Part shown: positions 5,090 through 64,000 of the stretch, one piece after another | Numbering within the stretch: the first letter of the stretch is position 1 | How the letters are laid out: the number at the start of each line of letters is the position of its first letter | IMG/VR virus record: IMGVR_UViG_3300030085_002462 | Reading direction: 5' to 3' (one strand) | Length of the DNA stretch: 64,000 bases | From: a virus | The notes under the pieces: model-generated | What the model saw: only the letters and a program-made list of their open reading frames with translations | What the model was told of the DNA's origin: nothing | The model's database searches: none | Translations under genes and position numbers: made by a program

Positions 5090-5401
5090 ATGCGTAAAAT
5101 CGAAGCACAAATGAATCAGGCAATCCGCCAGCGTCGTAACTGGAGCAATGCCAACACTTCTGTTGTAGTTGATGACAACAACAACGCCGAAGTTTATCTT
5201 CACGGCAATCACATTGCAACGATTGGTGATGAGATTCAACTCTTTGATGGTGGTTGGCAGTCTAACACCACTAAGTCACGTTTGAATGCTATTTGTTACG
5301 AATTCGCTTATGGTTGTGGTGTTTTTCAAAAGCAATTTGAGTGGTTTGTTAACACAAACAACGGCACAGTTGATTTCGTTAACGGCATCGCAGTATCATG
5401 A
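5090..5401 (+). CDS. Conserved cyanophage hypothetical protein (MRKIEAQM...LHGNHIA...DGGWQSNTTKSRLNA)
   Basis: 103-aa ORF with motifs I recognise from T4-like cyanophage early proteins. Confidence 0.85.
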   Translation: MRKIEAQMNQAIRQRRNWSNANTSVVVDDNNNAEVYLHGNHIATIGDEIQLFDGGWQSNTTKSRLNAICYEFAYGCGVFQKQFEWFVNTNNGTVDFVNGIAVS

Positions 5402-5807: not shown

Positions 5808-6440
5808 ATGACTGACAAATTAAGTGACAAACTAGAGAAGAAAATCACCCAAGAAACTTATGGGTTGTTTCCTACTGGTGTCACTCGTTATCAACTTGAT
5901 AATAGTGAAGAATTAAAGAAAAAAGTCTTATTGTGGATGAAAGACCAGGAAATCGTTGATGATCATGGTCGCCGTATGTTATGCCACAATATTACACAAG
6001 TAGGAGAGAAAAATAAGATCCTTGATGATATCCCAGAGTTAGAGCAGGCACTCATGAAAGCAGTGGGATTTCACAACAAAAATACTTTCAACTATAGTTG
6101 CAATTTAGCAATTAATGAAGCATACGTTGAATTAGCAACAGAGGGAGCACTTTACGCCCCTCATGAGCATTCAAATTGCCTTTATTCTCTCACTTACTTC
6201 ATTAACTACAATCATGAAAATCATGGATTTTTGAAATTTAGGCGTAATGTCTTGTCTTCAATGTATCCTGTTATGCAGGTGAATTCTAATCAACTCACCC
6301 CATACAATATGCCTGAAGCAACATTCACAATGCGCGAAGGTGATGTTGTAATTTATCCCTCAAATGTTACTCACGGTTATGACTCTAACCAGACTGATGA
6401 GCGTATCACATTAACTGCAAATATCATACCAGTTGAGTGA
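5808..6440 (+). CDS. 2OG-Fe(II) oxygenase superfamily protein (TIGR02466-like)
   Basis: PHEHSNCLYSLTYF (HxH iron ligands), EGDVVIYPSNVTHG (distal His) and RITLTAN (2OG-binding Arg). Confidence 0.88.
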   Translation: MTDKLSDKLEKKITQETYGLFPTGVTRYQLDNSEELKKKVLLWMKDQEIVDDHGRRMLCHNITQVGEKNKILDDIPELEQALMKAVGFHNKNTFNYSCNLAINEAYVELATEGALYAPHEHSNCLYSLTYFINYNHENHGFLKFRRNVLSSMYPVMQVNSNQLTPYNMPEATFTMREGDVVIYPSNVTHGYDSNQTDERITLTANIIPVE

Positions 6441-6494
6441 CACTTTTATTAGTGTCACCTAAGTATGTGCTACCGTGTTTTTTTCCACTATAAT
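6437..6494 (+). promoter_or_regulatory. Early two-box promoter element, copy 5 (perfect inverted repeat)
   Basis: GTGACAC-N8-GTGTCAC (6437-6458), then -10 TATAAT at 6489 (37 nt). Confidence 0.85.
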
Positions 6495-6519: not shown

Positions 6520-6960
6520 ATGACTCTTTCAAATCCAACAGTTGAAGCAAACGTCCCAACATGGGCACAAAAGTATTGTGACGCTCTAGAAGCAAATTAC
6601 AAGAATTATCACATTGATTCAATGAAGAGAATGGCATCCCGCCCAGACTCATCAACTTACGCAAATGAGCAACTTGAAAAGATTGAATCAGGTGAAGCAA
6701 AGTTAATGAAATTCAGAGCAAATCCTGGAAAGAAGTATTTCAAGATTATTCAACAGGAAGCAAGAAACGAAGCGGGTGAATATCGCGATCAGTCAGTTGT
6801 TGCTTTCATCGATAAAAAGACAGGTGAAATATACAAACCAGCAGGATGGAAGGGACCAGCGAAGCACGTCAGATTTGACATGAGAATCATCAAAGATCGC
6901 GAATTTGTCCATAACGCTAATAACGTAGATTGGGCAGGTGGTCATCTCTACATGATCTAA
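6520..6960 (+). CDS. Conserved hypothetical early protein (KYFKII...VVAFIDKKTGEIYKPAGWKGPAKHVRF)
   Basis: 146-aa ORF downstream of the promoter; widespread phage motif. Confidence 0.85.
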   Translation: MTLSNPTVEANVPTWAQKYCDALEANYKNYHIDSMKRMASRPDSSTYANEQLEKIESGEAKLMKFRANPGKKYFKIIQQEARNEAGEYRDQSVVAFIDKKTGEIYKPAGWKGPAKHVRFDMRIIKDREFVHNANNVDWAGGHLYMI

Positions 6961-7310: not shown

Positions 7311-7432
7311 CAACCAAACCATACAGTTTTCCACAGATTTTTGATATTTTGTGGAAAACTAAAAATGGTTAAAAAAATATACTAGAGAGAAATATATCTC
7401 TAGTTAAATGTCTCTAGGTGTAGTCATCTAAG

Positions 7433-7461
7433 AGCGTAACGCAACGAGATTTTTTTGTCAA
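7433..7461 (-). promoter_or_regulatory. Leftward sigma70-type promoter with no associated ORF
   Basis: Minus strand reads TTGACA (7461-7456), N17, TACGCT (7438-7433). Confidence 0.5.
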
Positions 7462-7469
7462 GTATACAC

Positions 7470-7527
7470 AGGACACTTCACAAACCCACACAGATCCCTT
7501 GACATTACTATCATTTTCCTACATAAT
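7470..7527 (+). promoter_or_regulatory. Hybrid promoter: early element copy 7 plus a canonical sigma70 -35
   Basis: AGGACAC-N8-CCCACAC; TTGACA (7499-7504), N17, CATAAT (7522-7527); box 2 to -10 distance is 37 nt. Confidence 0.8.
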
Positions 7528-7568
7528 GTAATCGTCCCAAACAAATCACTTTCCTTTGCTAATCGATC

Positions 7569-7754
7569 ATGGGTAGGACATACAAACGAAACGACCCCTA
7601 TAGAAGCAACAGACCAAAATCACTCAAAGAAAAAAGAAACCAATCACAATCCAATCGTCGCGGGTATAATGATGACAATCCCGCAGACTTTTCCACAGGT
7701 AAACACAAACGCCGCAACCCTGATGACTACACTACACGAGACGATTGGCAATGA
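7569..7754 (+). CDS. Small basic hypothetical protein (MGRTYKRND...)
   Basis: 61-aa Arg/Lys-rich ORF downstream of the promoter. Confidence 0.8.
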   Translation: MGRTYKRNDPYRSNRPKSLKEKRNQSQSNRRGYNDDNPADFSTGKHKRRNPDDYTTRDDWQ

Positions 7755-44232: not shown

Positions 44233-47200
44233 ATGCCCCAGAATACTAATCTAAATATTGCTCCTTATTTTGACGACTTCGATAAGGACAAAAACTTTTA
44301 TAGAGTCCTCTTTCGACCAGGATACCCCATTCAGGCGAGAGAGCTTACAACGATGCAATCGATTCTACAGAATCAGGTTGAAAGCATCGGCACGCACTTC
44401 TTCAAAGAAGGTGCGATGGTCATTCCTGGTCAAATTGGTTATGACCTTAATGTGCAGGCAGTTATTCTGCAGCAATCTTTCCTTGGTGTAGACGTAGAGA
44501 CATATAGGACACAACTTAACGGTCAGATTATTGAGGGCATCACAACTGGCGTTAAGGCAAAGGTCCTTTATTCTATTCCTTCTACAGAATCAGAGCGTGG
44601 TTATATTACACTGTATGTAAAATATATTGACTCTGGTGACACAACTTCTAGTGAATCTCTTAAAGGATTCCAACCCAACGAGCAGTTGCTTGCCGAGAAT
44701 GAAATTACTTTTGGCACAACTCTGATTGAAATTGGGTCTCCATTTGCACAGTTGCTTCCTGTTGATGCAACTGCTGTAGCATCTTCTGCTTATATCAATG
44801 CGGGTGTTTATTTTATTAGAGGTCATTTTGTTGATGTACCTTCCTCTTATTTGATTCTTGAGCAGTATTCAAACAACCCTTCCTATAGAGTTGGTCTTGA
44901 AGTTTCAGAATCCATTATTACTCCTGAAGATGATCCTTCTCTTAATGATAATGCCGCTGGCACTTCTAATTATTCTGCGCCAGGCGGACATCGTTTCAGA
45001 ATTCGTACCTCTCTCGTCAAGAAAGCAATTAACGATGAGACAGATAAGAATTTTATCGAGCTACTCAGAATTAATAACTCCAAACTAGAGCAGTTTGTTA
45101 ATAATACTGAATACTCTGAGCTGGAGAGATCTCTGGCACGCCGCACATATGAAGAAAGTGGCGACTATGTTATTGATACCTTTGACATCAAGATGCGTGA
45201 GCACCTTGACGATGGTTTTAACAATGGTGTTTATAGAGCAGGTGCACAATCCAGAGAAGGCAATGCTGCCTCTGAGGATATGCTTGCCATTGAGGTTTCA
45301 CCAGGTAGAGCATATGTTAAAGGTTACAGGACTGAATTCCTTGTGCCTCAGTATGTTGATGCTCCTAAACCTAGAGATTTCAACTCCGAAGAAAACGCTA
45401 TTGTATCTTTTAACCTAGGTCAGTTTGTTAAGGTCTACGATGTATATGGATGGCCTGATCTAACTGGTGAAGGTGTTACTGATGCATATCAAGTCCTTGA
45501 GATGAGAGACGACTGGGCTCTCAATCCAGGCTCCAGTGTAACTGGTAGACAGATTGGTCGTTGTCGCACCATTCAGATCCAAGAAGATCAGACTGGCATC
45601 TATGACCTTTATATGTTTGATATTCAAATGTATACTGCCGTTAACTTGGCAGCTGGTAACCAATCTGTGCAGGTTGGTGATGTTATTGTCGGCAGGACTT
45701 CTAATGCTAGAGGTTTTGTTGCTGATGCTGGATCTGGTAACTATTTCTCCCTTGAGCAAGTCTCTGGTAGATTTGTTAACGGTGAGGTGATGGAGAGAGA
45801 TGGTCGTGTTATCGGCACACTGGAAGCAGCATGGACATTTGAGCCTACTGATACAAGATCTTGTGTTGGTAGAAACAGTAGCAACCAAGTTATCTTTGGT
45901 TGTAACTGGTTGTTGAATGATCAAAGAGAAATCGAAGCAACTACTGTTACTCTTGATCAGTCTGCATTTACTTTGACTGGTTTTAGGACTAAGTTTGAAA
46001 ACGATCTTAGACCAGGTGAAGTTGTAACTGTATCTGGCACAAGTGCAGAAGGTGAGACATCTTTCCGTATTGAGAGAGTTGACCCACAATATATTAAGAC
46101 ACAATCTGGTAACTCTCACACAGGCGCTTCCTATAATGTGTTTGATTATGCTACTCAAGTAGCGAGAGTTGATCCTACTCTCAATAAAGGATCTATTTCC
46201 AATGGAGAATATTCTGTATTGGCACGTCTTCGTCCATACATTTTCCAAAAAGATTATCAGAATGGTGAGCTGACGATTGATACTCCTAAGACTTCAATGA
46301 AGTCTATCAGTGATGAATCATTCTTTGTCTATCGCACATTCACAAACAAAACTGTTGTGTCTGGTGGTGTTACTGTTACTCTGCCTGAATCTGAGCAGTT
46401 TGCATCTCTTGACGGTGAAAACTATGTCTTGACTATTCTGTCCCAATCTGGATCTGCATATACAGTTGGACAAAACCTTGACATTGATGCTCTAAATGAT
46501 GGTGGACAGTTGACTGTTACCTTCGGTGCATCTAGACAGTCCATCACGATTGACGGTTTGACAAATGTCCAGACTGTTAAATTGACTGCACTGGTTTCTA
46601 AGAATATCGTTTCTAAGAAAATTAAGACTGCTGCAAAGATGCGTGCCATGAAAGTGGTCCGCACACAAAATAATAATGACCAGCAAAAATTCGGTCTTGC
46701 TTACGGTAACTTGTATGGCACCCGTATTGAAGATAGAGAAATTTCTTTTGCTCTAAATGACGTTTATAAGATTCATGCAATCTATGAATCTGAAGACGAC
46801 CAAGATGCAGAAGCACCTTTCCTGACACTGCAAGAAGCAACCTTCTTTGATTCTGGTAGTGTTGTTATTGGTAGGACATCTGGTGCTCGTGGTCGTGTTA
46901 TTCAATTTATTAACGCAACTCTAAAACTACACATCGTCGCATTGAATGAAATTCCATTCTTGCCTGGCGAAACTATTGATGGTGTAGATGATGATAGTCA
47001 ACCTCTCTCAGCAATCATTGATGATGCTGAAGGATCTATCGGTAGAGGTAGTAAAGTTATCACAACACAGTATGAGTTGGATCCTGGTCAAAAAGCACAT
47101 TTCTATGATGTTTGTAAGATCACTAGAATTCCAGGATTTACAGCACCTACAAGAAAACTACTTGTTATCTTTGACTACTTCATTCATGAATCTTCAGGTG

Positions 47201-50200
47201 ACTATTTTGCTGCACAATCTTATACAGGTATTCCTTTCAAAGAGATTCCAAATTACAAACTTGATGGATCTATTAACTTCCTGAGAGACCAGTTGGACTT
47301 CCGTCCTGCTGTTGGTGAATTGGCATCTGGTAACGGCACTATTGGTGCACCATACTTTGTTAACTGTGCATCTCTTGACTTTGCTGCACGCACATTTAAC
47401 ACTTCTGGTGGCACGGGCGGCGCAACAATCTTCGACATCATGAAGGTTGATACGGAATTTAGAATGGATTATTCCTACTATCTTCCTAGAATCGACAAAC
47501 TGTTTATTACCCATGACAACAAACTGCAAGTTGTAAAGGGTGTCTCTGGTGAGGATCTTCTCCCACCTGAGGGCATTGAAAATGCTATGTTGTTGGCAGT
47601 GCTTGAGCACAAACCATACAACTACGATGTGGAGCGAGATACTCTGATCTTCCCTGAGATCATTCGTCGCTACACTATGAAAGATATTGGTGATCTTGAG
47701 ACTCGTCTTACTCATGTTGAGTATTATACATCTCTGTCACTGTTGGAAGTCCAAGCAGATAACGCTAAGTCATATGACGACAATGGTTTCGACCGTCTGA
47801 AGAATGGTTATGTGGTTGATGACTTTACCGACCACACTATTGGCGACGTGCTTAACGTTGACTATAAGTGCTCCATGGACTTCAAAGAAGGTCTGTTGAG
47901 ACCTGCTCACTATACTACTAATGTCCCTCTTGAGTTTAATGCTTCAGCATCTAACAATGTTGTAAGGACTGAAAGTAATATGATCTTCCTGCCTTGGCAG
48001 GATGTTGAGATTGTTAAGCAACCTTATGCATCTAGGACTGAGAATGTTAACCCATTTAACGTGTTTACATTCATTGGTCGTGTTGACCTAACTCCAGCAT
48101 CTGACGATTGGATTGATATTGAGCGTCTTCCTGCTCGTGTTGAAAACGTCGAGGGTGATTTCTCTGCTGTTGCTAGAGACCTTCAGATTGACCAGAATGG
48201 TTTTGCTCCTATCCAATGGGGATCTTGGCAAACCAACTGGACTGGTGAGTCACTTCAATCATCTTCTTCCTTCCAGTCTAGATCAGGTACATATGGTATT
48301 GGTCGTCAGTTAGGTCGTGCTGGTCACGGTCAGCGTCGTCAGGGTCTTTTCTACCTGCACGAAAGACGCACATATCGTGTTGTTAACAACCAAGCAAGAC
48401 AAGGTATCAGGACTCGTGTTGTGCCCAAGATTGACAGAAAGTCTCTTGGTGACACTATCCTGTCTCAAACAGCAATTCCTTGGATTAGATCTCGTAACAT
48501 TGGTTTCAACGTTGATCGTTTGAAGCCTCGCACCAGAATGTATGCATTCTTTGATGGTGTTGATGTTACCAACTATATTACTCCTAAGGTTATTGAGCTG
48601 ATCAAAAACTCTTCTGAAGACACTCGCACAAACGAAACACCTTTCGTTGTTGGCGAAACTGTCATTGGTGAATCTTCCAAGTGTCAACTTCAGGTCGTCG
48701 CTGCAAATGACGGTTATAAGACTGACCCTTATGGTGTTGGTGAGGCAACTCTTCCCGAGTCATATGCATCTCAAACACCAGTACTTAATATTGACTTGAA
48801 GGCACTTGCTGAAACTGTCAATCCTAACTTCTTCGGTAATGCACAAACAGGTGAAGTGTTGGTGGGTCAAACCTCTGGTGCTCGCGCTGTTGTGAAAGAT
48901 CGCCGTCTGCTCTCTGATAACATCGGTAACCTGCAGGGCACATTCTTCATTCCTTCTCCTAAGAATGATGCAAACCCACGTTGGGCAACTGGCACAAGGA
49001 CATTTAGATTCACAACATCTAATACTAATAGTAGATCACCTGGCGAAGTTGATTCTTCTGCAGATACTGAATATAAAGCAACAGGTACTTTACAGACTGT
49101 TAGAGAAAATATTCTTGCAATCAGAAACGCTCAAATCGTTAGAGATACTGTTACTGATGAAAGACAAGTTATTACAACTAGGACTGAGACACGTCAGGTT
49201 GGTTGGTATGACCCTCTTGCACAATCCTTCATCGTTGATGAAGAAGGTGGTATCTTCCTGACAGGTGTTGATATCTTCTTTAACACTAAAGATAGCAACA
49301 TTCCTATCTCTATGCAGATCAGGACTATGGAGAATGGTTATCCTACTAAGGATATTCTTCCTTTCTCTGACGTGACAATCGATCCTTCTCAGGTTGAATT
49401 GTCTGATAACGCTGCAATCCCAACACGATTTACATTCCAATCTCCTGTTTATATTAAGCAGTCGATTGAATATTGCTTCGTGCTTCTGTCTGACTCCAAC
49501 GAATATAAAGTTTGGATCTCCAGAATGGGTGACGTTGAAGTCAGCGGGACAAGGACCATCTCTGACCAACCATATGCTGGTGTGCTCTTTAAGTCACAAA
49601 ACGCATCTACATGGACTGCTGACCAGTATGAGGATTTGAAGTTTACCATCTATCGTGCTGATTTCACAGCAAGTATTGGTAACGCTGTATTTAATAACGC
49701 TGAGTTGGGTCTTGGTAACGGTGGTGTCCATAACTTGATTGAGAATCCAATTCAAACTCTCAAACCAAAGCAACAACTGTTGCTCCCTACAGGCACAAAT
49801 AATAATTTCACTATTGGTGCTCGTATCATTCAGACACCTTCTAACGCAGAAGGCACCATTGTTGAGTTTGACTCAACATCTGATCCTGAAGTGATTACGA
49901 TTTCCGATATTGTTGGATCTTGGCAGGCAGGTTTCTTGGATGCAAATGGTAATCCATTCCAAGGTATTAAATCCTCTCAGTCAACAGCAACCATTGTGTT
50001 GTCCGCTATCTTTAACGGTGTCTTTGAAGTTAATAATACTATCACAGGATCTACATCCAACGCTACCGCTAAAGTAACCAACTATGATGCAGGCACACAA
50101 ACTTTGAGTGTCAACTTCGTTGATGGTGCATTCGACTTGGCAGATACACTATCTGAGCCAGGCGGCACATCTGCAACTATTACTAGCGTTTCTTATGCTG

Positions 50201-51519
50201 GTGATACTTATGACACTTATCCTACTGCCGCTCCTACATATTCAAATGATGATAAGGAAGTCTTGGTGTATCACAGAAACCACTGTATGCATCAACGCAC
50301 AAACAACGTAGAGGTTTCTGGAATTGTTTCTGAGATCCCTTCTACTACTCTGACTTCTACTCTGTCAGTTGGTGCTGGTAGTATTCAGGTGCAGGATGCT
50401 TCTGCATTCCATACGATTATTAATGGCACAGGAATTGGTAACTTGAATCCTGGCTTTATTAAGATCGGCACAGAAATTATTAAATACTCTGCTATTTCTA
50501 CTAGCGGACAAACCATTACAGTTGCAACTTCTGGTAGAGGATCTAACTCTACTGCTGAGCAAGAGCATCCCTCTGGCACAGTTGTTGAATGTTACAACCT
50601 TGATGGTATTCCTCTGACAGAAATCAATAAGGTCCATACCAGCATTTCTTGCCCATGGTTGGATACTTATATGTTGCACGTTGATAGTGTTGCAACAAAT
50701 GGAATTCGTGCAGGTGGCACAGGCGTTATTGCTTCTCAGAATGTCCAGTATGAGACTTTGACACCTACTGTCTCCACCATGAATCTCCCAGAGACTAATA
50801 TTCTTGCTCGTGTAAATACTACTACGGGCACGTCAATCGGTGATGGATCTACCAACATCGACCAAGCGTCCTTTGTTAACAATGGCACATACGAGGATGT
50901 TGTCCTCAATGAGCAAAATAGATTCTATTCACCTCAGTTGATCTGCTCCAAGATTAACGAGCAAAACAAACTTGATGGTGGTAAGTCATTTAACATGATT
51001 ATTGAGTTGTCTACTGATAAGCCATCTCTATCCCCATGTATTGACTTGGATCGTTGCTCTCTGATTACAACCACCAACCGTATCAATGCATGGCCAGGCG
51101 GTCCTGATCCTTATGGACAACAGTCTAATATTGATAGGGATCAAGATGTTTCGACACTTCCTACGGGTGATCAAAACGACGCAGTATACATCACACGTCT
51201 CGCCCGCTTGGGTCAAGAGGCTAGATCTCTCAAGGTTGATTTCCAAATCACCAGACATCCTGCTTCTGAAGTCCGCGTATACTACCGTGCATTTAAGATC
51301 GGTAATGCTACATCCAGCGAAGAGACAGGTTGGACTCTGTTAGGTCTGCCTACGAATTATGACTCTACTCCTTCCGAGGAAATTCTTTATAAGGATTATG
51401 CCTATGAAGCAAGAGGTCTTAACTTCAACGCATTCCAAGTGAAGATCGTTATGAGATCTACTAACCAAGCAAGAGTACCTCTAATTGCTGATCTTCGTGC
51501 TACTGCTTTAGCTACTTAA
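44233..51519 (+). CDS. Large virion structural protein (2428 aa; DUF4815/VrlC-like)
   Basis: MPQNTNLNIAPYFDDFD..KNFYRVLFRPGYPIQARELT..QSILQNQ; DRLKNGYVVDDF; YDPLAQSF; SQNASTWTA.QYEDLKF. Confidence 0.88.
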   Translation: MPQNTNLNIAPYFDDFDKDKNFYRVLFRPGYPIQARELTTMQSILQNQVESIGTHFFKEGAMVIPGQIGYDLNVQAVILQQSFLGVDVETYRTQLNGQIIEGITTGVKAKVLYSIPSTESERGYITLYVKYIDSGDTTSSESLKGFQPNEQLLAENEITFGTTLIEIGSPFAQLLPVDATAVASSAYINAGVYFIRGHFVDVPSSYLILEQYSNNPSYRVGLEVSESIITPEDDPSLNDNAAGTSNYSAPGGHRFRIRTSLVKKAINDETDKNFIELLRINNSKLEQFVNNTEYSELERSLARRTYEESGDYVIDTFDIKMREHLDDGFNNGVYRAGAQSREGNAASEDMLAIEVSPGRAYVKGYRTEFLVPQYVDAPKPRDFNSEENAIVSFNLGQFVKVYDVYGWPDLTGEGVTDAYQVLEMRDDWALNPGSSVTGRQIGRCRTIQIQEDQTGIYDLYMFDIQMYTAVNLAAGNQSVQVGDVIVGRTSNARGFVADAGSGNYFSLEQVSGRFVNGEVMERDGRVIGTLEAAWTFEPTDTRSCVGRNSSNQVIFGCNWLLNDQREIEATTVTLDQSAFTLTGFRTKFENDLRPGEVVTVSGTSAEGETSFRIERVDPQYIKTQSGNSHTGASYNVFDYATQVARVDPTLNKGSISNGEYSVLARLRPYIFQKDYQNGELTIDTPKTSMKSISDESFFVYRTFTNKTVVSGGVTVTLPESEQFASLDGENYVLTILSQSGSAYTVGQNLDIDALNDGGQLTVTFGASRQSITIDGLTNVQTVKLTALVSKNIVSKKIKTAAKMRAMKVVRTQNNNDQQKFGLAYGNLYGTRIEDREISFALNDVYKIHAIYESEDDQDAEAPFLTLQEATFFDSGSVVIGRTSGARGRVIQFINATLKLHIVALNEIPFLPGETIDGVDDDSQPLSAIIDDAEGSIGRGSKVITTQYELDPGQKAHFYDVCKITRIPGFTAPTRKLLVIFDYFIHESSGDYFAAQSYTGIPFKEIPNYKLDGSINFLRDQLDFRPAVGELASGNGTIGAPYFVNCASLDFAARTFNTSGGTGGATIFDIMKVDTEFRMDYSYYLPRIDKLFITHDNKLQVVKGVSGEDLLPPEGIENAMLLAVLEHKPYNYDVERDTLIFPEIIRRYTMKDIGDLETRLTHVEYYTSLSLLEVQADNAKSYDDNGFDRLKNGYVVDDFTDHTIGDVLNVDYKCSMDFKEGLLRPAHYTTNVPLEFNASASNNVVRTESNMIFLPWQDVEIVKQPYASRTENVNPFNVFTFIGRVDLTPASDDWIDIERLPARVENVEGDFSAVARDLQIDQNGFAPIQWGSWQTNWTGESLQSSSSFQSRSGTYGIGRQLGRAGHGQRRQGLFYLHERRTYRVVNNQARQGIRTRVVPKIDRKSLGDTILSQTAIPWIRSRNIGFNVDRLKPRTRMYAFFDGVDVTNYITPKVIELIKNSSEDTRTNETPFVVGETVIGESSKCQLQVVAANDGYKTDPYGVGEATLPESYASQTPVLNIDLKALAETVNPNFFGNAQTGEVLVGQTSGARAVVKDRRLLSDNIGNLQGTFFIPSPKNDANPRWATGTRTFRFTTSNTNSRSPGEVDSSADTEYKATGTLQTVRENILAIRNAQIVRDTVTDERQVITTRTETRQVGWYDPLAQSFIVDEEGGIFLTGVDIFFNTKDSNIPISMQIRTMENGYPTKDILPFSDVTIDPSQVELSDNAAIPTRFTFQSPVYIKQSIEYCFVLLSDSNEYKVWISRMGDVEVSGTRTISDQPYAGVLFKSQNASTWTADQYEDLKFTIYRADFTASIGNAVFNNAELGLGNGGVHNLIENPIQTLKPKQQLLLPTGTNNNFTIGARIIQTPSNAEGTIVEFDSTSDPEVITISDIVGSWQAGFLDANGNPFQGIKSSQSTATIVLSAIFNGVFEVNNTITGSTSNATAKVTNYDAGTQTLSVNFVDGAFDLADTLSEPGGTSATITSVSYAGDTYDTYPTAAPTYSNDDKEVLVYHRNHCMHQRTNNVEVSGIVSEIPSTTLTSTLSVGAGSIQVQDASAFHTIINGTGIGNLNPGFIKIGTEIIKYSAISTSGQTITVATSGRGSNSTAEQEHPSGTVVECYNLDGIPLTEINKVHTSISCPWLDTYMLHVDSVATNGIRAGGTGVIASQNVQYETLTPTVSTMNLPETNILARVNTTTGTSIGDGSTNIDQASFVNNGTYEDVVLNEQNRFYSPQLICSKINEQNKLDGGKSFNMIIELSTDKPSLSPCIDLDRCSLITTTNRINAWPGGPDPYGQQSNIDRDQDVSTLPTGDQNDAVYITRLARLGQEARSLKVDFQITRHPASEVRVYYRAFKIGNATSSEETGWTLLGLPTNYDSTPSEEILYKDYAYEARGLNFNAFQVKIVMRSTNQARVPLIADLRATALAT

Positions 51520-52126: not shown

Positions 52127-55100
52127 ATGGCAAATAGAATACAACTAAGAAGAGACGGTGCTCAGCAATGGGCAAACGTCAACCCTATCCTTGCCCAAGG
52201 TGAATTGGGTATCGAGATCGATACGTCGCGTATCAAAATCGGTGATGGCGTTACGCCGTGGAACTCGCTTAAATATGAGCGACCACTAGAAACCGAATCT
52301 AATACCGCCAACACTCTGGTAAAGAGGGATGCTGACGGTAACTTTGAGGCGGGTGCAATTACTGCATCGCTGATTGGTAATGCTGCGACTGCAACAAGAC
52401 TGGCAAACTCCAGACAGATCCAACTGGGTGGTGACATGTCTGGTAGTGGCACGTTTGATGGATCCTCAAACTTGACCATTACTGCAGAATTGAATTATGT
52501 TACAACTCTGCCACACTATGATCAGAATGATCTTGACGCACAAGGCACATATACAAAACTAACTATTGACTCTCGTGGTCGTATTGTTAACGCATTCAAT
52601 CCCACGACTCTAAACGATTATGGAATCGTTGACGCGCAACCTCTTGATAGCGACCTGACATCCGTTGCTAGTATGACCACTTTCGGTCTGATGTCTCGTC
52701 AGGCAGAAGGTAGTATTGTCACTCGCACCATCACTGGTGGTAGTGGTCGTATTATTGTACAGAATGGTAACGCACAAACCAACAACCCCTTCCTTGATCT
52801 TGCTGATACGGCAGTTGTTGTTGGCACATATAACCCTGTAGGACTTGGAGATACCCCTCTTGTTTCTGTAGGCACAGGTTCTCAGACTGTTAATACTACA
52901 AACTTCACAGTTGACAGATACGGTCGTTTGACTTATGCTCAAACCAGTCCTATCGCAACTGCAACGGAGGGAGCGAAGTCTGGCACATCTTTCACCACTT
53001 ACGATAACGCTGTTGCGTATCCTAGATTTTCAAAGATTATTGCTCCTAATGGTAGAGTATATCAAGCTGCTATTCGGGATGTCGGAGCAGGACTCGGAGC
53101 TCCAACGCACAACACAAACAATGGTGATGCAGACGATCAAGGTGGATGGAGAGATCTGGGTGCTGATTCCGTCGAGCAAAAGGGTCTTGCGAGTTTCGAC
53201 CAAGAAGACTTCAATGTAGATGACAATGGTCATGTAACGATTGCTGCAGACGCAATCGAAAATACTCAGTTACAATCTGCTGGTAAACTTATGTTTACCG
53301 ACCAAAATGCAACTGAAGAGTTTATTCTCGACAAAGAGCGCACAACTGACAATGCCTATCATGGCATCACTAAAGTAAACCATGTTAACATCAACAACCG
53401 CACTGGTAATTCTGTTTTCAGAGTTGTTGGCTACGATACTGCTGAGTATCCCTTCCAACCTTCCATCTTGTCGCAGGGTAATTCTTACCCCGCTATTAAT
53501 GCTGATGATGCTAACGGCAATGGGAGCGCCACAAGCGGTTCTTCTCTTACTGGCGCTGTTGACATTAATCTTGACACTACCCTTTCTGGTAATCTTACCC
53601 TCGACGTTGCAAAAGCCGATCAATTCATAAAGAGGACTAGCGGCAATCTTGAGGTTGCTCTAGAGATTAATGAAACTAACAACCGCTCGATGGATGTTAA
53701 TGTCACCAACGCAGGTTCTGGTGATGCAACATTCAATCTGACTGTTGATCAAGACATTACTATTAACGTTACCGATGTTGATCATCGCGTTAACGTAGAA
53801 GACTTCCACATTCAGGATAATGTGTTGTCAACCACCAATTCCATCATGGTGCTTGACCCTGCTGATGACGATGACATTAGTGGCACAGTCCGTATCCGTG
53901 GAGACTTGACTGTTGATGGCACCACGACTACAGTTAACTCAACTACAGTCACCATCGATGATGTCATTCTTACCTTGGGCGGAGACACAACACCAACGCT
54001 CGATGATGGAAAAGACAGAGGTGTTGAATTCCACTATTATGATTCACAAGCAAGAAAAGGATTCTTCGGGTGGGACGAAAATTACGCGGATGCTAACATA
54101 TGGTCTGGCACTGGCGGGTATAGGTTCCTCTACAACGCGACTAACACAAGCGAAGTTTATTCTGGTACTGACGCTCCTCTCATTGCTGGTAACCTCAGAC
54201 TAACAACTAATACGTCTTCTACTTGGAAGACACCTACAACTGGCACATTGGTAGTAACTGGTGGTGCAGGTATTTCTGAAAACCTCAACGTGGGTGGCAC
54301 AACTCACCTGAATGGTAACGTTGAGATTGATGGCACACTTGATATTGATGCCAACTTTGCTATCAGAGATGGCAGCACTGATAAGTTTACTGTTGCCAGT
54401 GCTACAGGTAATACTGTTATTGAAGGCACACTGGATGTCCAGCTGGAAACTGAAATTACAGATAACCTAATTGTAAGAGCAGATAATAAAGTATTTGATA
54501 TTAAGACAGATGCTGGCGTATCTAAGTTTACTGTAGATACCGATAATGGTAATACTGTCATTGAAGGCACAGTTAATGTCAAGCAAGGCGTTGACTTTGA
54601 TAGCACACTGAATGTCGATAGCGATGTAACCTTCAACGCAACATTGGATGTTGACGATGATGCTACATTCCACAACGACATTACACTTGATACCACTGGT
54701 AAATTCTTTACAATTACCAATGGTAGTAGTCAGACTTTCCGTGTAACATCGACAAATGGTAACACAGATATTGAGGGTAGTCTTAATGTTGGTGGCATCA
54801 ACACTTTTGAGCGCACTAACAATATCGTTATTGCTGAAACTACAGACGATATCACATTAAGCAGTGTAGGTAACGCTACCTTTGCTGGTGGTGTAAACAT
54901 CGATAAGGATGTAAGAATCGGCACCGATCTGTACGTGGCCGATCGTTTAGTCGTCAAAGACGCTGGCACAGCACGCACACGTCCTTCACTTCTCAACAAC
55001 GTTGATGTCCTGTATCGCACCTATCTGGGTGGTGGCACAGCACACAACGCATCTTTCGCAGATGATGCTGATGCTCAACTTAGAGTTGCAGGTGGCGTAG

Positions 55101-58100
55101 GTATCGTCCAAGACTTGTATGTCGGTGACGATTTCTATATTGGTAAGGTTTCCAACACAGACACTATTGAATTCCAAGTCCTTGGTGAGTCTGGTGCTAC
55201 TACAATCGGTCGTGTTGGACAGGGTGGCACAACAGATGGATCACTTACAGTCCACGGTGATGTCACATTTAACCGTGATGTCACATTTAATGGTGACGCT
55301 CTAACCTTTGGTGTTGATGCAACTGATGTATTGACAGTCAATGCTATCTCCACATTTACTGACAACGTTACTGTTAACGGTGACTTGGATGTTGATGGTA
55401 ATACCGTTATCGAAGGTAACCTGACTGTTAACGGCACAACTACAACTATTAACTCTACAACTCAGACTCTGGACGATCCCGTCTTTACTCTGGGTGGCGA
55501 TACTGCTCCTTCTCAGGCAGATGCTAAGGATAGAGGTATTGAGTTTAGATATTATTCTGGCAGCGCACAGATTGGTTTCTTTGGTTGGGATAACTCTGCT
55601 GGTCGCTATGCTTTCTATCATGGAGCGACTAATTCTTCAGAGGCATTCTCTGGCACCCGCTCTGGTATTGACGCTGGATCACTCAAACTATTTGATACAA
55701 CCAATTCCACATCAGCATCTACAGGTGCACTGATTGTTGGTGGTGGTGTTGGTATTGGTCTAGACCTTACTGTTGGTGATGATCTTATTGTTACCGATGA
55801 CGGTAGTTTCGGTGGCAACGTAGATATTACTGGCACATTAGATGTCACTAATGACCTTGCAGTCAATGGTAATAAATTTACTGTTGTTGCCAGCAACGGT
55901 AACACATATGTTGCAGGCACTTTCCAAGTTGATGGTAACGCTACCATCGGTAATGCTGGATCTGATAACCACATTGTTACTGGCACAGTAACATTCAACC
56001 AAGCAATTACATCTACTGACATCACTGCTGATCAGATTGAGATTGGTGTTGATGGTCCTACTGAAATCAGCACTACTTCTGGTAACCTGATTCTTGATTC
56101 TGATGGCGGCACTGTCAACATCACAGATAATGCTGACGTAGACGGTAACCTCAATGTTGATGGCAATACACAGATTGATGGCACGCTCACGGTCGATGGC
56201 AACACAACTATCGGTAATGCTGCTGGGGATGCTCACAGCGTCACGGGTACTGTCCAATTCAACCAAGCGATTACTTCCACCGACATCACGGCGGACAACA
56301 TCAAGATCGGCGTTGATGGTGCGACCGAAATCTCCACCACATCAGGAGACCTGATCCTTGATTCTCAATCAGGTAAAGTCCATATCACAGACAATGCTGA
56401 GGTTGATGGTAACCTTCAGATAGATGGCAACACAACTCTTGGTGACGCTTCTAGCGATACTCTGACAGTTAACGCTACATCTACATTTAACGCTCAAGTT
56501 AATGGTAACGCAGCGATCTGGAATAACCTAAGAATTGGTTTTACAAACAATAATGAGATTGATACCTCAACTGGTAATCTGACTCTGGATTCTGCTGGTG
56601 GATCAACTACTATCGATGATGATCTTTCCGTAACTGGTGCGTCAACTTTAACTGGTCAACTTACAGTTAATGATAGCATCTTGATTGATGCTACCAATGA
56701 GCAATTCCGTGTTAGAAGTAGTCTGGTTGATAGATTTACTATTGACAGTGATAACGGTAACACCTTCATTGCTGGCACAACTCAGATCGAAGGTCTGACA
56801 ACCATCAATGATAACCTTGATCTTAATGGTAATGGTGATGTATCTGGCACTCTGAATGTTGCTAATATTGTCTATGCTGATAGCACTGATGGTGCTAACC
56901 TTGGTAATAATTTCGCTGCTGATGGTGCTCTAAGAGTTGCAGGTGGTGCAACAGTTGCACAAAACCTTGGGGTTGGTGGAAATCTTCAGGTCTATGGTGA
57001 CCTTGAGATTGATGGTAATCAGGTCAGTAAAGGTAACCAAGAATTCCGTGGTCGTGTTGAATTCTCCAAGTCTGATAATCCTAACAGTCTGACTGCTAAT
57101 GCAGCAATTATGGTCACCGCTGGTGGTGTCACTGTTGCTGAGGATATGTTTGTTGGATCTGACCTCTTCCTTGGTCCTAACAACGGCACAACCATTACAC
57201 TTAATGGTGCTACAGGTAATGCTTCTATTGGTGGCACACTCGGTATCACAGGCACAACAACTGCTGCTGTAATTAACGCTTCGTCGGTCAATACATCTGC
57301 ATCTGTTGGTATCGGTGGATCGCTGCTGATTAACACTGATAAGTTTACTGTCCAAGGTAGCACAGGTAATACAGACATCGCTGGCACACTTGATGTTGAT
57401 GGTGCAACAGTTATTGATGACACCCTGAATGTTACTCAGGCAGTTGACTTTGATAGCACACTTAATGTTGATGGTGAGTCTACCTTCAACGCTGCTATTA
57501 CACAAAACAGCACTTCACTGTTTAAGGATAATTTCGTCCTTCGCGGTGCATCTAAGACACTTAAGTTACAAAACGGTAGTGGCACTGACAAGATTACTCT
57601 TGCTTCTACAACTGGTAATATTACTGCCGCTGGTCTCACAACCACTAACACCTTTGAGTCTGTTTCTAACGCTACCATCGGTGGCACATTGGGTGTTACT
57701 GGACAAATCACTGGTAACATCACTGGTGATCTTACAGGTACTGCTGATAAGGCAGATCTGGTTGAAATCACTGAGACTGCTTCTTCTAACCTTACTTACT
57801 TCATTCCATTCGTTTCTACGAATACTGGATACACTGAAGTCCGCACAGACTCTAGCAACCTTAGCTACAACCCATCAACTAACAGACTGACTGTTAATAA
57901 CTTCAGATCAACAACTGACTTTGAAGTCCAAGGTAACTTGACTATTACAGGTAATATCTTGTATGGTCAGTCACAGGTTGGTAGTATTGCTAACCATGAC
58001 ACTGACGCTCTGTCAGAAGGCACCTCTAATCTCTACTTCACTGATGAGAGAGTTGATGATCGTGTTGCTGGTTTGATCAACGCTGGCACTGGCATCTCTG

Positions 58101-59146
58101 CTACTTATGATGATGCAGGCAATATGCTTACATTGTCTGCCGTCCAAGCAGATCTGAATACTGATAATATTACTGAAGGTAGCACAGCACTGTTTACTAC
58201 TGCTGCACGCACTCGCTCCCACTTCACATACGGCGTGGGTATTGAGTTGTCTGGTGCTGGTGAGTTGAGTGTCACTCAAGCAGATATCAATACTGATAAC
58301 GTCACGGAGGGATCAACAAATGTCTTCTTTACGAACGCTCGCGCTAGGGGTGCATTTAGCGTTGGTGGCGATCTCGGTTACAACGCTTCTACTGGCGAAT
58401 TCTCATTCACTGAGCGCACAGATGCTGAGGTAAATGCACTTGCTGATACTCGTATCGCACTGAATGTTGGCACAAACCTTGACCTGAGCAATCAGGACAC
58501 TGGTGATCTGGCAGAGGGCACTAACCTCTACTACACCAACGCTCGTGCTGATGCTCGCATTGCACTTCAAGTTGGTGCAAACCTTGATATTAGCAACCAG
58601 TCCACAAGCGACCTGTCTGAAGGCACTAACCTTTACTACACACAAGCTCGTGCTGATGCAAGAGTTGATGCAGGATTTGCTGCTAAGGACACTGGTGACC
58701 TTGCAGAAGGCACTAACCTTTACTACACAGACGCACGCGCTGATGCTCGTGTCGCCGCTGCTGCTAGTAACTATGCTACTGCTGCACAAGGCACGCTGGC
58801 AGATTCCGCTACACAACCAGGAGATCTGGCAACTGTAGCAACCAGCGGATCTTACAATGATCTGTCTAACTTGCCTACGCTCTTCTCTGGTGCATATGCT
58901 GATCTAACTGGCAAACCTACATTATTCTCTGGTGATTATGATGACCTAACCAACAAACCTACGTTGGGCACTGCTGCTGCAACCGCAGCAACTGCATATG
59001 CAACTGCTGCACAGGGATCTAAAGCAGACGCTAACGATACTGACATAGATGACATCTATACTCAGTTGGTTGCGATTGGTAATGACACTAACATCTCAAC
59101 AGTCGCACAACTCAAGACTGCACTACTCGCACTCGCTAGAAGTTAA
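52127..59146 (+). CDS. Long tail-fibre-like protein (2339 aa)
   Basis: N-terminal RIQLRRD.A.QW...NPILAQGELGIEIDT.RIKIGDG (Mtd-N/hyaluronidase-type); extensive TL.V.G beta-repeats; C-terminal EGTNLYYT.ARA repeats. Confidence 0.88.
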   Translation: MANRIQLRRDGAQQWANVNPILAQGELGIEIDTSRIKIGDGVTPWNSLKYERPLETESNTANTLVKRDADGNFEAGAITASLIGNAATATRLANSRQIQLGGDMSGSGTFDGSSNLTITAELNYVTTLPHYDQNDLDAQGTYTKLTIDSRGRIVNAFNPTTLNDYGIVDAQPLDSDLTSVASMTTFGLMSRQAEGSIVTRTITGGSGRIIVQNGNAQTNNPFLDLADTAVVVGTYNPVGLGDTPLVSVGTGSQTVNTTNFTVDRYGRLTYAQTSPIATATEGAKSGTSFTTYDNAVAYPRFSKIIAPNGRVYQAAIRDVGAGLGAPTHNTNNGDADDQGGWRDLGADSVEQKGLASFDQEDFNVDDNGHVTIAADAIENTQLQSAGKLMFTDQNATEEFILDKERTTDNAYHGITKVNHVNINNRTGNSVFRVVGYDTAEYPFQPSILSQGNSYPAINADDANGNGSATSGSSLTGAVDINLDTTLSGNLTLDVAKADQFIKRTSGNLEVALEINETNNRSMDVNVTNAGSGDATFNLTVDQDITINVTDVDHRVNVEDFHIQDNVLSTTNSIMVLDPADDDDISGTVRIRGDLTVDGTTTTVNSTTVTIDDVILTLGGDTTPTLDDGKDRGVEFHYYDSQARKGFFGWDENYADANIWSGTGGYRFLYNATNTSEVYSGTDAPLIAGNLRLTTNTSSTWKTPTTGTLVVTGGAGISENLNVGGTTHLNGNVEIDGTLDIDANFAIRDGSTDKFTVASATGNTVIEGTLDVQLETEITDNLIVRADNKVFDIKTDAGVSKFTVDTDNGNTVIEGTVNVKQGVDFDSTLNVDSDVTFNATLDVDDDATFHNDITLDTTGKFFTITNGSSQTFRVTSTNGNTDIEGSLNVGGINTFERTNNIVIAETTDDITLSSVGNATFAGGVNIDKDVRIGTDLYVADRLVVKDAGTARTRPSLLNNVDVLYRTYLGGGTAHNASFADDADAQLRVAGGVGIVQDLYVGDDFYIGKVSNTDTIEFQVLGESGATTIGRVGQGGTTDGSLTVHGDVTFNRDVTFNGDALTFGVDATDVLTVNAISTFTDNVTVNGDLDVDGNTVIEGNLTVNGTTTTINSTTQTLDDPVFTLGGDTAPSQADAKDRGIEFRYYSGSAQIGFFGWDNSAGRYAFYHGATNSSEAFSGTRSGIDAGSLKLFDTTNSTSASTGALIVGGGVGIGLDLTVGDDLIVTDDGSFGGNVDITGTLDVTNDLAVNGNKFTVVASNGNTYVAGTFQVDGNATIGNAGSDNHIVTGTVTFNQAITSTDITADQIEIGVDGPTEISTTSGNLILDSDGGTVNITDNADVDGNLNVDGNTQIDGTLTVDGNTTIGNAAGDAHSVTGTVQFNQAITSTDITADNIKIGVDGATEISTTSGDLILDSQSGKVHITDNAEVDGNLQIDGNTTLGDASSDTLTVNATSTFNAQVNGNAAIWNNLRIGFTNNNEIDTSTGNLTLDSAGGSTTIDDDLSVTGASTLTGQLTVNDSILIDATNEQFRVRSSLVDRFTIDSDNGNTFIAGTTQIEGLTTINDNLDLNGNGDVSGTLNVANIVYADSTDGANLGNNFAADGALRVAGGATVAQNLGVGGNLQVYGDLEIDGNQVSKGNQEFRGRVEFSKSDNPNSLTANAAIMVTAGGVTVAEDMFVGSDLFLGPNNGTTITLNGATGNASIGGTLGITGTTTAAVINASSVNTSASVGIGGSLLINTDKFTVQGSTGNTDIAGTLDVDGATVIDDTLNVTQAVDFDSTLNVDGESTFNAAITQNSTSLFKDNFVLRGASKTLKLQNGSGTDKITLASTTGNITAAGLTTTNTFESVSNATIGGTLGVTGQITGNITGDLTGTADKADLVEITETASSNLTYFIPFVSTNTGYTEVRTDSSNLSYNPSTNRLTVNNFRSTTDFEVQGNLTITGNILYGQSQVGSIANHDTDALSEGTSNLYFTDERVDDRVAGLINAGTGISATYDDAGNMLTLSAVQADLNTDNITEGSTALFTTAARTRSHFTYGVGIELSGAGELSVTQADINTDNVTEGSTNVFFTNARARGAFSVGGDLGYNASTGEFSFTERTDAEVNALADTRIALNVGTNLDLSNQDTGDLAEGTNLYYTNARADARIALQVGANLDISNQSTSDLSEGTNLYYTQARADARVDAGFAAKDTGDLAEGTNLYYTDARADARVAAAASNYATAAQGTLADSATQPGDLATVATSGSYNDLSNLPTLFSGAYADLTGKPTLFSGDYDDLTNKPTLGTAAATAATAYATAAQGSKADANDTDIDDIYTQLVAIGNDTNISTVAQLKTALLALARS
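57990..58960 (+). repeat. Tandem repeats in the fibre C-terminus (TDxLxEGxxNLY(Y/F)TxARAxAR, about 6-7 copies; then SGxYxDLxxKP, 3 copies)
   Basis: Near-identical DNA, e.g. ggacactggtga...gaaggcactaacct(c/t)tactacac at about 58495, 58615 and 58690. Confidence 0.85.
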
Positions 59147-62598: not shown

Positions 62599-64000
62599 AT
62601 GCCCGCCGTCTCCAGAAAACAACAAAGATTCTTCGGGATGGTTAGAGCGGCTCAGAAGGGGGAATTGGGGCAAGCGTCGCCTGAGGTTTCCAGAGTTGCT
62701 GCCGACATAAGTAAGAAAGACGCAAAGGATTTTGCATCCACTAAACACAAAGGTCTGCCTGAGAAAAAAATGAAAAAGGAAGATTACAAGTATCCTCTAT
62801 ACGCACCATACACTAAGGTGGATGAGTTTCATGCCAACAAAAAACCGTTGGATGAAGAAGGATATGATCATATGCGTGATCGCAAACTTGAGAAGTATGG
62901 CTCAGGTTACAGATCTGCAGGCAGTAGCCGCAGTGTTGCAAGGTCTGGTGGGACGCAACCCAAACCCATGCCTAAGAAGAAGGATGGTCCTTCTGCTCTG
63001 GACTATGTGAAGAAGTCCATCGAAGCAAAGTATGGCAAGGGTGCCATCATGGATACTTCTAAGAAGAAGAATGAAGAATATGTAGCTGAGAAAAAAGATT
63101 GCGTCAAGAAAGAAAAGAAGACCATGCACAACTGTGCTAAGAAGGTCTGCTCTGAGCAATGGGGTGTTGGTGAGTGTATTTACGGACAACATGCTGTCCC
63201 TGATGCTGATGGCAATGTCGCGTGGTATGACGTAATGTTTGAGCATGGCATCGAGAAAGGTGTGGATGTATCAACACTAGAAGTTTTGGAAGAAGGATCT
63301 CACGGTGAGCATGTTGAGCATGAAGGTGAGATGGTTGAAGCAAAGGTTGACACCTATAAAAAATTAGATGATGAAGGTAAAGAAGATGCAAGAAACTTGC
63401 GTAAGTTTGGCACCTCTCACAATCAGCATGGACATGCTGTTTTAAGGAGAGCACTTCATCGCTCACGCCGTGGAGATAAGAAGGTGAAAGGTGAAAAACC
63501 AGTATATGAGAAAGAGAGCGTAGAGCATATCGAAGAGAAGAAGAAAGGTCTCTGGGATAACATTCATGCCAAGCGTAAGCGTGGTGAGAAACCTGCTAAG
63601 CCTGGTGACAAAGATTATCCTAAGACTCTCAACGTCGAAGGTTATGATAAACCAGACGAGAAGTTGAAGACTGATCGGGATATGTTTAACATCCCTAAGG
63701 AAAAGCAGAATGCTGCAAAGGAGCGTCTTCTCGCTAAAGCAAAAGCAAAGCGTGCAAAACTGAAAGAAGATGTTTGGGATCAGGTTGACATCTTTGCGGA
63801 GATGAATGACTGGGAGATCTCACTCCTTAATGATACTATTATCGAAGATATCGTTACTGATGTCTTCATCGAAGAATTACAAGAAGGTAGAGATATTGAT
63901 AGCGTCACAGATATGCTCTGTGAGTCTGTTGATTACTCTCTGAATCTTCTGACAGAAGTATCTGACTCATACTATGATTCTGCTGTTAAGTCTTCTAAAG
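62599..64000 (+). CDS. Modular, highly charged late protein with a DUF3008-like N-terminus; 3'-truncated; probable internal head protein
   Basis: Missed by the track. Hand translation is open from ATG 62599 to the window end: MPAVSRKQQRFFGMV...DFASTKHKGLPEK... Confidence 0.85.
   Translation, partial: MPAVSRKQQRFFGMVRAAQKGELGQASPEVSRVAADISKKDAKDFASTKHKGLPEKKMKKEDYKYPLYAPYTKVDEFHANKKPLDEEGYDHMRDRKLEKYGSGYRSAGSSRSVARSGGTQPKPMPKKKDGPSALDYVKKSIEAKYGKGAIMDTSKKKNEEYVAEKKDCVKKEKKTMHNCAKKVCSEQWGVGECIYGQHAVPDADGNVAWYDVMFEHGIEKGVDVSTLEVLEEGSHGEHVEHEGEMVEAKVDTYKKLDDEGKEDARNLRKFGTSHNQHGHAVLRRALHRSRRGDKKVKGEKPVYEKESVEHIEEKKKGLWDNIHAKRKRGEKPAKPGDKDYPKTLNVEGYDKPDEKLKTDRDMFNIPKEKQNAAKERLLAKAKAKRAKLKEDVWDQVDIFAEMNDWEISLLNDTIIEDIVTDVFIEELQEGRDIDSVTDMLCESVDYSLNLLTEVSDSYYDSAVKSSK

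Follow-up and report, generated by a model that had tools for sequence, protein, structure and literature searches.

Does a lytic T4-like phage make use of the replication initiator of its host? The question is raised by a short locus in the IMG/VR record IMGVR_UViG_3300030085_002462, the complete 186,016-base-pair (bp) record of a T4-like cyanophage, from which a stretch of 64,000 nucleotides (nt) was analysed; this whole stretch is called the window below, its position 1 corresponds to genome position 123,081, and all coordinates of the phage are window positions. Few viruses of the main primary producers of the ocean are as abundant as the T4-like cyanophages. Phages of the T4 type are not known to rely on a host initiator when they begin to replicate, and we know of no mapped origin of a T4-like cyanophage. 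An initial annotation of the locus had proposed for 7311-7700 a hybrid origin, joining T4-style R-loop priming to the recruitment or titration of host DnaA. The present analysis indicates that the segment 7325-7754 is probably one form of a control cassette that T4-like cyanophages (Kyanoviridae) carry in a single copy. In all versions, the predicted core consists of back-to-back early promoters of the sigma-70 type, an AT-rich block and a small gene for a basic protein; in this phage and most cassette lineages, perfect DnaA boxes of the host type appear to bracket this core. We prefer to read the cassette as an early replication origin resembling T4 oriF/oriG, at which DnaA would assist by opening or gating the DNA, and attach a probability of about 0.4 to this reading. 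The features of the cassette are as follows:

7325-7360: convergent pair of perfect DnaA boxes (7327-7335, plus strand; 7350-7358, minus strand), 11-bp arms, 14-bp gap between the boxes; left edge of the cassette
7337-7410, no strand: AT-rich tract, candidate DNA unwinding element, holding the conserved block AAAATGGTTAAAAAAATATAC at 7362-7383
7371-7404, minus strand: terminator-like hairpin for the leftward RNA (stem from 7404 to 7381, U-run from 7380 to 7371)
7372-7427, minus strand: predicted short leftward transcript of about 50-55 nt, both ends inferred from promoter and terminator
7435-7463, minus strand: leftward sigma-70-type promoter, TTGACA (7463-7458)-N17-TACGCT (7440-7435)
7499-7527, plus strand: rightward sigma-70-type promoter, TTGACA (7499)-N17-CATAAT (7527), predicted driver of the small basic gene
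7569-7754, plus strand: gene for a small basic protein of 61 residues (MGRTYKRND...), member of the cassette
7689-7697, plus strand: third perfect DnaA box, in frame (Phe-Ser-Thr) within the 61-residue gene

DnaA boxes at the two ends of the cassette

The perfect word TTTTCCACA is found at 7327-7335 (plus strand), 7350-7358 (minus strand) and 7689-7697 (plus strand), exactly where the initial annotation had placed it, all within 371 bp. The entire genome contains these three copies and none outside the cluster, the reversed control word occurring twice. Boxes 1 and 2 are the arms of a single inverted repeat, AGTTTTCCACA-N12-TGTGGAAAACT, with arms of 11 bp, and were therefore counted as one event; by arithmetic from the genome-wide count, the chance of one further copy within +/-371 bp of the repeat is about 0.004. 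The three 9-mers, of the TT(A/T)TNCACA type, are thus clustered above chance. In the window as a whole, matches to the loose consensus TTWTNCACA are not in excess (6 vs 9.5 expected), so that the signal resides in the exact host-type word alone. Cyanobacteria, the Synechococcus group among them, have TTTTCCACA as their DnaA box (PMC4674748, PMC2275245), in agreement with the host type that had been assigned to the boxes. The description of the locus as the largest gene-free gap of the early region needs correction: 7311-7568 (258 bp) is indeed the largest stretch of the first 16 kb without a plus-strand open reading frame (ORF) of at least 38 residues starting with ATG, but the third box lies beyond it, inside the 61-residue gene.

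The relatives used for comparison are metagenomic contigs or two isolates, and their lineages are not independent samples. Three sets of loci were compiled. The first, from an exact scan of IMG/VR for TTTTCCACA-N8-22-TGTGGAAAA, comprises at least 120 loci; of the 124 matches listed, 56 have a gap of 14 bp and 27 one of 15 bp, 87 of 120 loci share proteins with this phage, and the inverted repeat usually lies 0.3-2 kb from a homologue of gp96. Again among the matches listed, perfect boxes beyond the repeat itself number 167 in 116 inverted-repeat loci (1.04 Mb), of which 142 are no more than 1 kb away from it, and control 9-mers occur 7-28 times over the same 1.04 Mb. The second set, 80 loci (660 kb) picked by the gp96 protein alone and blind to boxes, holds 108 perfect boxes vs 3-13 occurrences of control 9-mers, an enrichment of about tenfold; one or more boxes are present in 36 of the 80 loci and at least two in 31, and the counts of TTTTCCACA and TTATCCACA are 108 and 9, respectively. 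The third set was defined, also blind to boxes, by an exact scan in IUPAC (International Union of Pure and Applied Chemistry) code for the conserved leftward promoter block, and includes 42 IMG/VR loci, 39 of them non-redundant (among the matches listed). In this promoter-defined set, boxes are present both upstream of and within the small gene in 25 loci and at neither place in three, with no discordant locus. In the wider set, L256/L257 have upstream boxes only, and strict co-occurrence of upstream and in-gene boxes was dropped as a rule, L256/L257 and L270 being the exceptions. The box-bearing complete genomes (G005, G006, G007 and the isolate S-SZBM1) each contain one cluster of 3-4 boxes within at most 900 bp; that of S-SZBM1 comprises four perfect boxes (NC_070839, positions 557-1006). 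Conservation at the syntenic site, which the initial annotation had put forward as a check, is therefore partial: the boxes are kept in many relatives, well above the control words, but several complete relatives have no cluster.

The third box is embedded in a frame that is evidently a real gene. The N-terminal 25 residues of its product, MGR(T/S)YKRND..KSLREKR, are kept despite drift at synonymous sites; this product gives a weak match to phrog_1464, and the searches revealed no Pfam family, only unnamed homologues and no atlas lead. The gene is conserved across Kyanoviridae; the homologue in phage P-TIM40 is annotated as gp087, and that in S-SZBM1 (L372, NC_070839) lies unannotated at 2501-2686, under a 470-bp 'gap'. 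In most box-bearing lineages, a perfect box is located 105-122 nt into the gene. The lineage of this phage and three others have it on the plus strand, as TTT TCC ACA (Phe-Ser-Thr). The large D lineage has it on the minus strand, as T GTG GAA AA, encoding x-Val-Glu-Lys/Asn; there, the codon before the box varies (Asn, Tyr, Ser or Pro) and always ends in T, and the codon after it varies at the third base only. The small protein of S-SZBM1 contains a duplicated Asp-Phe-Ser-Thr (DFSTDFST), which gives two perfect boxes 3 bp apart (L372, 2609-2629). By the codon usage of this genome, the chance that Phe-Ser-Thr is spelt as TTTTCCACA is 0.02. The comparative evidence shows the 9-mer word to be under selection at the DNA level, and the codon-embedded box would be a clear instance of a coding sequence over which a regulatory word has been written.

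The manner in which the boxes vary resembles the grammar of DnaA sites. Across more than 100 loci (among the matches listed), the arms of the inverted repeat keep their sequence and the spacer varies freely; the arm variants are TTATCCACA, which is the perfect box of E. coli, GTTTCCACA and TTTTCAACA, with no compensating change in the opposite arm. Several lineages have a direct pair, TTTTCCACA-nn-TTTTCCACA, in place of the inverted pair. In the unbiased sets, the gap is 2-3 bp in 8 of 12 direct pairs and 14-15 bp in 25 of 35 convergent pairs, and divergent pairs were not found there; E. coli DnaA prefers direct pairs 2-3 bp apart (PMC11317965). Variation is thus confined to positions that DnaA tolerates, and the spacing of neighbours is DnaA-like. 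The same convergent N14/15 arrangement was revealed in more than 120 bacterial genomes of many phyla, and 51 of 120 bacterial loci (among the matches listed) contain the DnaA signatures GLGKTHL and NIRELEG in the same 8-kb locus. The bacterial form is often a triple, TTTTCCACA-nnn-TTTTCCACA-nn-TGTGGAAAA, with an outer gap of 14 bp; the middle 9-mer of the convergent pair in the window, TTTTTGATA, matches at only 6 of 9 positions.

Some further observations concern these arrangements outside the cyanophages. The triple lies about 0.5-0.7 kb upstream of dnaA in bacterial genomes of Acidobacteriota and relatives (L136, L137, L172, L186, L192, L198, L208, L210, L217, L230, L239, L240); its 14-bp outer gap is the commonest phage spacing. 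GC-rich viral contigs (56-60% GC; L047, L048, L054, L067, L076, L085, L086), mostly unrelated to cyanophages, carry TTTTCCACA-N18-TGTGGAAAA beside CAAAAAACGCCGCGC, and DnaA-box pairs may be used by other phage groups too.

The inverted repeat lies 15 bp downstream of a stop codon and, as RNA, folds stably on either strand (-18.1 and -17.1 kcal/mol, z about -5.5), as would suit a mere RNA hairpin or terminator after the upstream gene, the third copy being present by chance. However, with a stem of 11-13 bp, about four GC pairs and a loop of 10-14 nt, the repeat does not have the structure of an intrinsic terminator; no U-run follows it on either strand, and it is absent from the terminator-scan list. 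Conserved arms around a variable loop, uncompensated changes in the arms, the substitution of direct double boxes for the inverted pair in some lineages and the conservation of the third copy against codon drift all speak against a hairpin as well. A mere hairpin is contradicted by the comparative data, which favour a protein site, and we regard it as hardly credible.

The aligned loci firmly support the view that selection maintains the 9-mers at either end of the cassette as binding sites of a DnaA-like grammar, and we infer that host DnaA is the protein that binds them. The boxes could instead be operators of a phage-encoded (or other host) DNA-binding protein that shares the DnaA-box word, for example the small basic protein, whose gene travels with the cassette; T4 oriE offers a parallel, with private repeats and adjacent small rep genes (PMC3016281). 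Such a protein seems improbable, as the word is the exact host DnaA box, and both the variants, such as TTATCCACA, and the double-box spacing of 2-3 bp are DnaA-like (PMC11317965). The same arrangement stands beside dnaA in many bacterial phyla, the small gene is also present in boxless cassettes and boxless genomes, and 23 gp96-anchored loci have two or more boxes with the small gene not nearby. Finally, no DnaA-type DNA-binding domain is encoded by the phage.

AT-rich block, promoters and leftward RNA

An alignment of the cassette from 12 lineages gives the following order of elements. The boxes, where present, form the left edge; in L349, which has a different upstream gene, homology begins exactly at the boxes. 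They are followed by the conserved AT-rich block AAATG..TAAAWAAAYATA, the hairpin, the leftward block CTWAGAGCGTARC-N8-ATTTTTTTGTCAA, which corresponds to minus-strand TTGACA-N17-(TGn)TACGCT, the rightward promoter TTGACA-N17-TAnAAT and the small gene. The cassette is present in a single copy in the genome.

The AT-rich tract claimed by the initial annotation turned out to be more extreme than proposed: the 60-mer starting at 7337 is the most AT-rich of the whole genome (81.7%) and ranks first as the least stable (-63.7 kcal/mol vs a genome mean of -79.2, standard deviation 4.3). This 60-mer overlaps the right-hand box of the pair, which gives the boxes an adjacent AT-rich candidate unwinding element, as at oriC. 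The block AAAATGGTTAAAAAAATATAC is conserved in all cassette lineages, with or without boxes. No DnaA-trio or 13-mer-type repeats were obvious by eye in 7359-7410, where no formal motif test was made.

Both promoters of the earlier description, minus-strand TTGACA-N17-TACGCT and a plus-strand promoter back-to-back with it, are present. The leftward one, which had been noted for having no gene behind it, proved to be the best conserved piece of the cassette: the block AGAGCGTARC-N8-ATTTTTTTGTCAA occurs in 42 IMG/VR loci (among the matches listed) and in P-TIM40, it is single-copy in the genome, and most relatives have an extended TGn -10 element. The rightward promoter agrees with the consensus at 11 of 12 positions, its -35 and -10 elements both being conserved across lineages. 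From a predicted start at about 7427, the leftward promoter would fire into the tract 7337-7410, which is the arrangement of T4 oriF and oriG; its -35 is a consensus sigma-70 element, and it does not resemble the MotA-dependent middle-mode promoters found at those origins.

The palindrome at 7381-7404, likewise part of the initial description, scores together with its T-run as a minus-strand terminator (fold z = -3.05 vs shuffles). In this lineage and its near relatives, the hairpin and the U-rich tail are kept although the stems differ (ACUAGAGA/UCUCUAGU vs CUCCG.AGA/UCUCGGAG); this suggests that the leftward RNA of this lineage is about 50 nt long and ends before the boxes. The D lineage shows no clear equivalent of the terminator.

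The locus is situated in a block of small plus-strand early genes. The product of the neighbouring gene 5090-5401 belongs to the Pfam family Kyano_Gp96 (E = 7e-45), and the nearest isolates are Kyanoviridae, e.g., P-TIM40 and S-SZBM1. A run of very large structural genes starts about 2 kb further on; very long plus-strand ORFs after the early region, at 16660-37248 (6862 residues), 44233-51519 (2428 residues) and 52127-59146 (2339 residues), presumably encode virion or fibre proteins. The 186,016-bp record stops short of the last ~1 kb of the window (62937-64000), which would fit a circularly permuted assembly. Between two early genes, at 6437-6458, there is a perfect dyad, GTGACAC-N8-GTGTCAC, which has 8 matches with up to three mismatches in the window vs 3.7 expected; a copy at 7470 was rejected as an element of the cassette, since it deviates from the ideal by more than three mismatches. 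Rfam searches of the whole window at gathering thresholds revealed no family, and the tRNA scan found none. The phage encodes its own DnaB-family helicase. Pfam searches of the genome gave no match to gp59_N or to MotA_activ, and these two negatives carry little weight because the searches had no positive control.

Origin or transcription control

The preferred reading, an early origin assisted by DnaA, can be set out as a sequence of steps. Host DnaA would bind the boxes at both ends of the cassette and, bound there, would help to open, or gate, the AT-rich block; the T4-type replisome of the phage would then take over, either on the opened DNA or from the short leftward RNA serving as R-loop or primer, in the manner of T4 oriF and oriG. 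The boxes would be an accessory that raises or times the firing of the origin according to the state of the host initiator, as at plasmid R1. A stronger form, which appears somewhat doubtful, makes host DnaA a functional initiation factor in a lytic T4-like phage: it would open the weakest duplex, and the RNA or bubble would pass to the phage helicase-primase.

The hybrid origin of the initial annotation thus retains part of its basis, namely the conserved and selected host-type boxes, the meltable DNA and the promoter. Several observations weigh against an origin, the first being the distribution of the boxes. The complete genomes G001, G002 and G004 have no box cluster yet carry the small gene, and the core cassette exists without any box in P-TIM40, L332, L351 and L369; the boxes are consequently, on the present alignments, a frequent but optional addition to a conserved core, and because they are optional, the origin function of the cassette can be called no more than plausible. 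The leftward RNA in this lineage probably terminates before the boxes and, being AU-rich, would be a poor basis for a stable R-loop; for a persistent R-loop used as primer, terminator and AU content give no clear argument in either direction. In L270, the rightward promoter has a perfect TTTTCCACA as the spacer separating its -35 (TTGACA) from its -10 (TATACT), at about 6700-6740 and 65 nt ahead of the small gene; this box, unlike the in-gene box of other lineages, occupies a classic repressor position. The cumulative GC and AT skews of the genome are monotonic and uninformative, with no origin signal. To our knowledge, no T4-type helicase has been reported to be loaded by DnaA. Recombination accounts for most of the replication of T4-like phages, for which a fixed origin is not compulsory.

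The box inside the L270 promoter points to transcription control, and the cassette may be a DnaA-responsive switch and not an origin. DnaA would block, terminate or stimulate the transcripts of the divergent early promoters, and expression of the small protein and the leftward RNA would follow the replication or energy state of the host, as in the DnaA regulon or at lambda pR/pO. Both box sites lie downstream of a promoter, at about +70 and about +165 when counted from the leftward and the rightward start, respectively, and optional boxes would suit a modulator. Known systems are also in line with a switch: lambda has footprinted DnaA boxes downstream of pO, a promoter of a short leftward RNA (PMC3985674), and E. 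coli DnaA runs a compact regulon through double boxes (PMC11317965). Nevertheless, the right-hand box differs between lineages in position and strand (plus or minus strand of the gene, promoter, or absent), contrary to what a precise promoter mechanism predicts, and a switch leaves the adjacency of the boxes to the most meltable DNA of the genome unexplained. Moreover, the interplay of DnaA and promoter in lambda serves the activation of the origin, so that a switch is not fully separate from an origin. On balance, a switch alone is rather unlikely, but it is a serious competitor of the origin reading and the strongest one.

The optional boxes would also fit an accessory trait of host takeover, in which boxes multiplied by phage replication titrate host DnaA and stop initiation in the host, in the manner of datA. 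A cluster of perfect, presumably high-affinity boxes might serve as such a sink. We find this quite improbable: there are only 3-4 boxes per genome, and a sink would need neither their fixed geometry, nor the bracketing of promoters and AT-rich block, nor the single-copy placement.

If the stronger form, with host DnaA as initiation factor, is true, the cassette would be the first DnaA-assisted origin of the T4 superfamily and would give the cyanomyoviruses their first mapped origin. Use of DnaA would tie infection to the replication and energy state of the host and, through DnaA, to light and the cell cycle in picocyanobacteria, and it could help to explain the dependence of cyanophage DNA synthesis on light and host physiology. 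The box array, next to a conserved promoter without a gene and to the most meltable DNA, offers a concrete single-copy locus and a concrete host factor; natural controls exist in cassettes that have or lack boxes, and in the isolate S-SZBM1, whose host, Synechococcus CB0101, is in culture.

Comparison with known systems

No description of DnaA boxes in T4-like cyanophages was found in the full-text literature, where subscription journals are incompletely covered. DnaA sites of the host have precedents in foreign replicons and in the control regions of phages; in the T4 superfamily, or overprinted on a gene, they are not known to us.

The oriC of cyanobacteria, a box cluster next to dnaN with 1-12 boxes, shares with the cassette the word TTTTCCACA, the small size of the clusters and the AT-rich neighbour (PMC4674748, PMC2275245); unlike oriC, the cassette is viral, carries promoters and has one box within a coding gene. 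The double boxes of the E. coli DnaA regulon are direct pairs 2-3 bp apart (PMC11317965), as in several phage lineages and in the small gene of S-SZBM1, whereas the window's own pair is convergent with a gap of 14 bp. Among plasmids, the origins of P1, F, RK2, pSC101 and R1 contain accessory boxes for host DnaA (PMC4980987). In R1, DnaA is not required but raises efficiency, a dispensability that parallels the optional boxes of the cassette, and in RK2 the position and orientation of the boxes matter, which parallels its fixed geometry (PMC4980987). These plasmid origins differ in having iterons and a plasmid Rep protein, neither of which was found in the cassette.

T4 oriF (at uvsY) and oriG (at gene 34) consist of a promoter and a downstream unwinding element, with priming by an R-loop (PMC3016281). 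The cassette is similar in that a promoter would fire into an easily melted block, no phage initiator is evident and a T4-type replisome is encoded. It differs in that the T4 promoters depend on MotA (middle mode) and the cassette promoter is of the plain sigma-70 type; the T4 origins have no DnaA boxes, the cassette has no synteny to uvsY or gene 34, and its RNA is apparently terminated after about 50 nt.

By analogy, the closest phage precedent is lambda: downstream of pO, from which the short leftward oop RNA is transcribed, DnaA boxes have been footprinted, and transcription stimulated by DnaA activates ori-lambda (PMC3985674). Lambda and the cassette have in common host DnaA boxes downstream of a promoter for a short leftward RNA and a second, opposed promoter; in lambda, transcription near the origin governs initiation, as would be the case here. 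Lambda, however, supplies an initiator (O), iterons and a helicase loader (P) of its own, of which no equivalents were seen in the cassette, and its boxes merely resemble the consensus, whereas those of the cassette are perfect; the cassette promoters are arranged back-to-back and not convergently, and the phage that carries them is a lytic T4-like myovirus.

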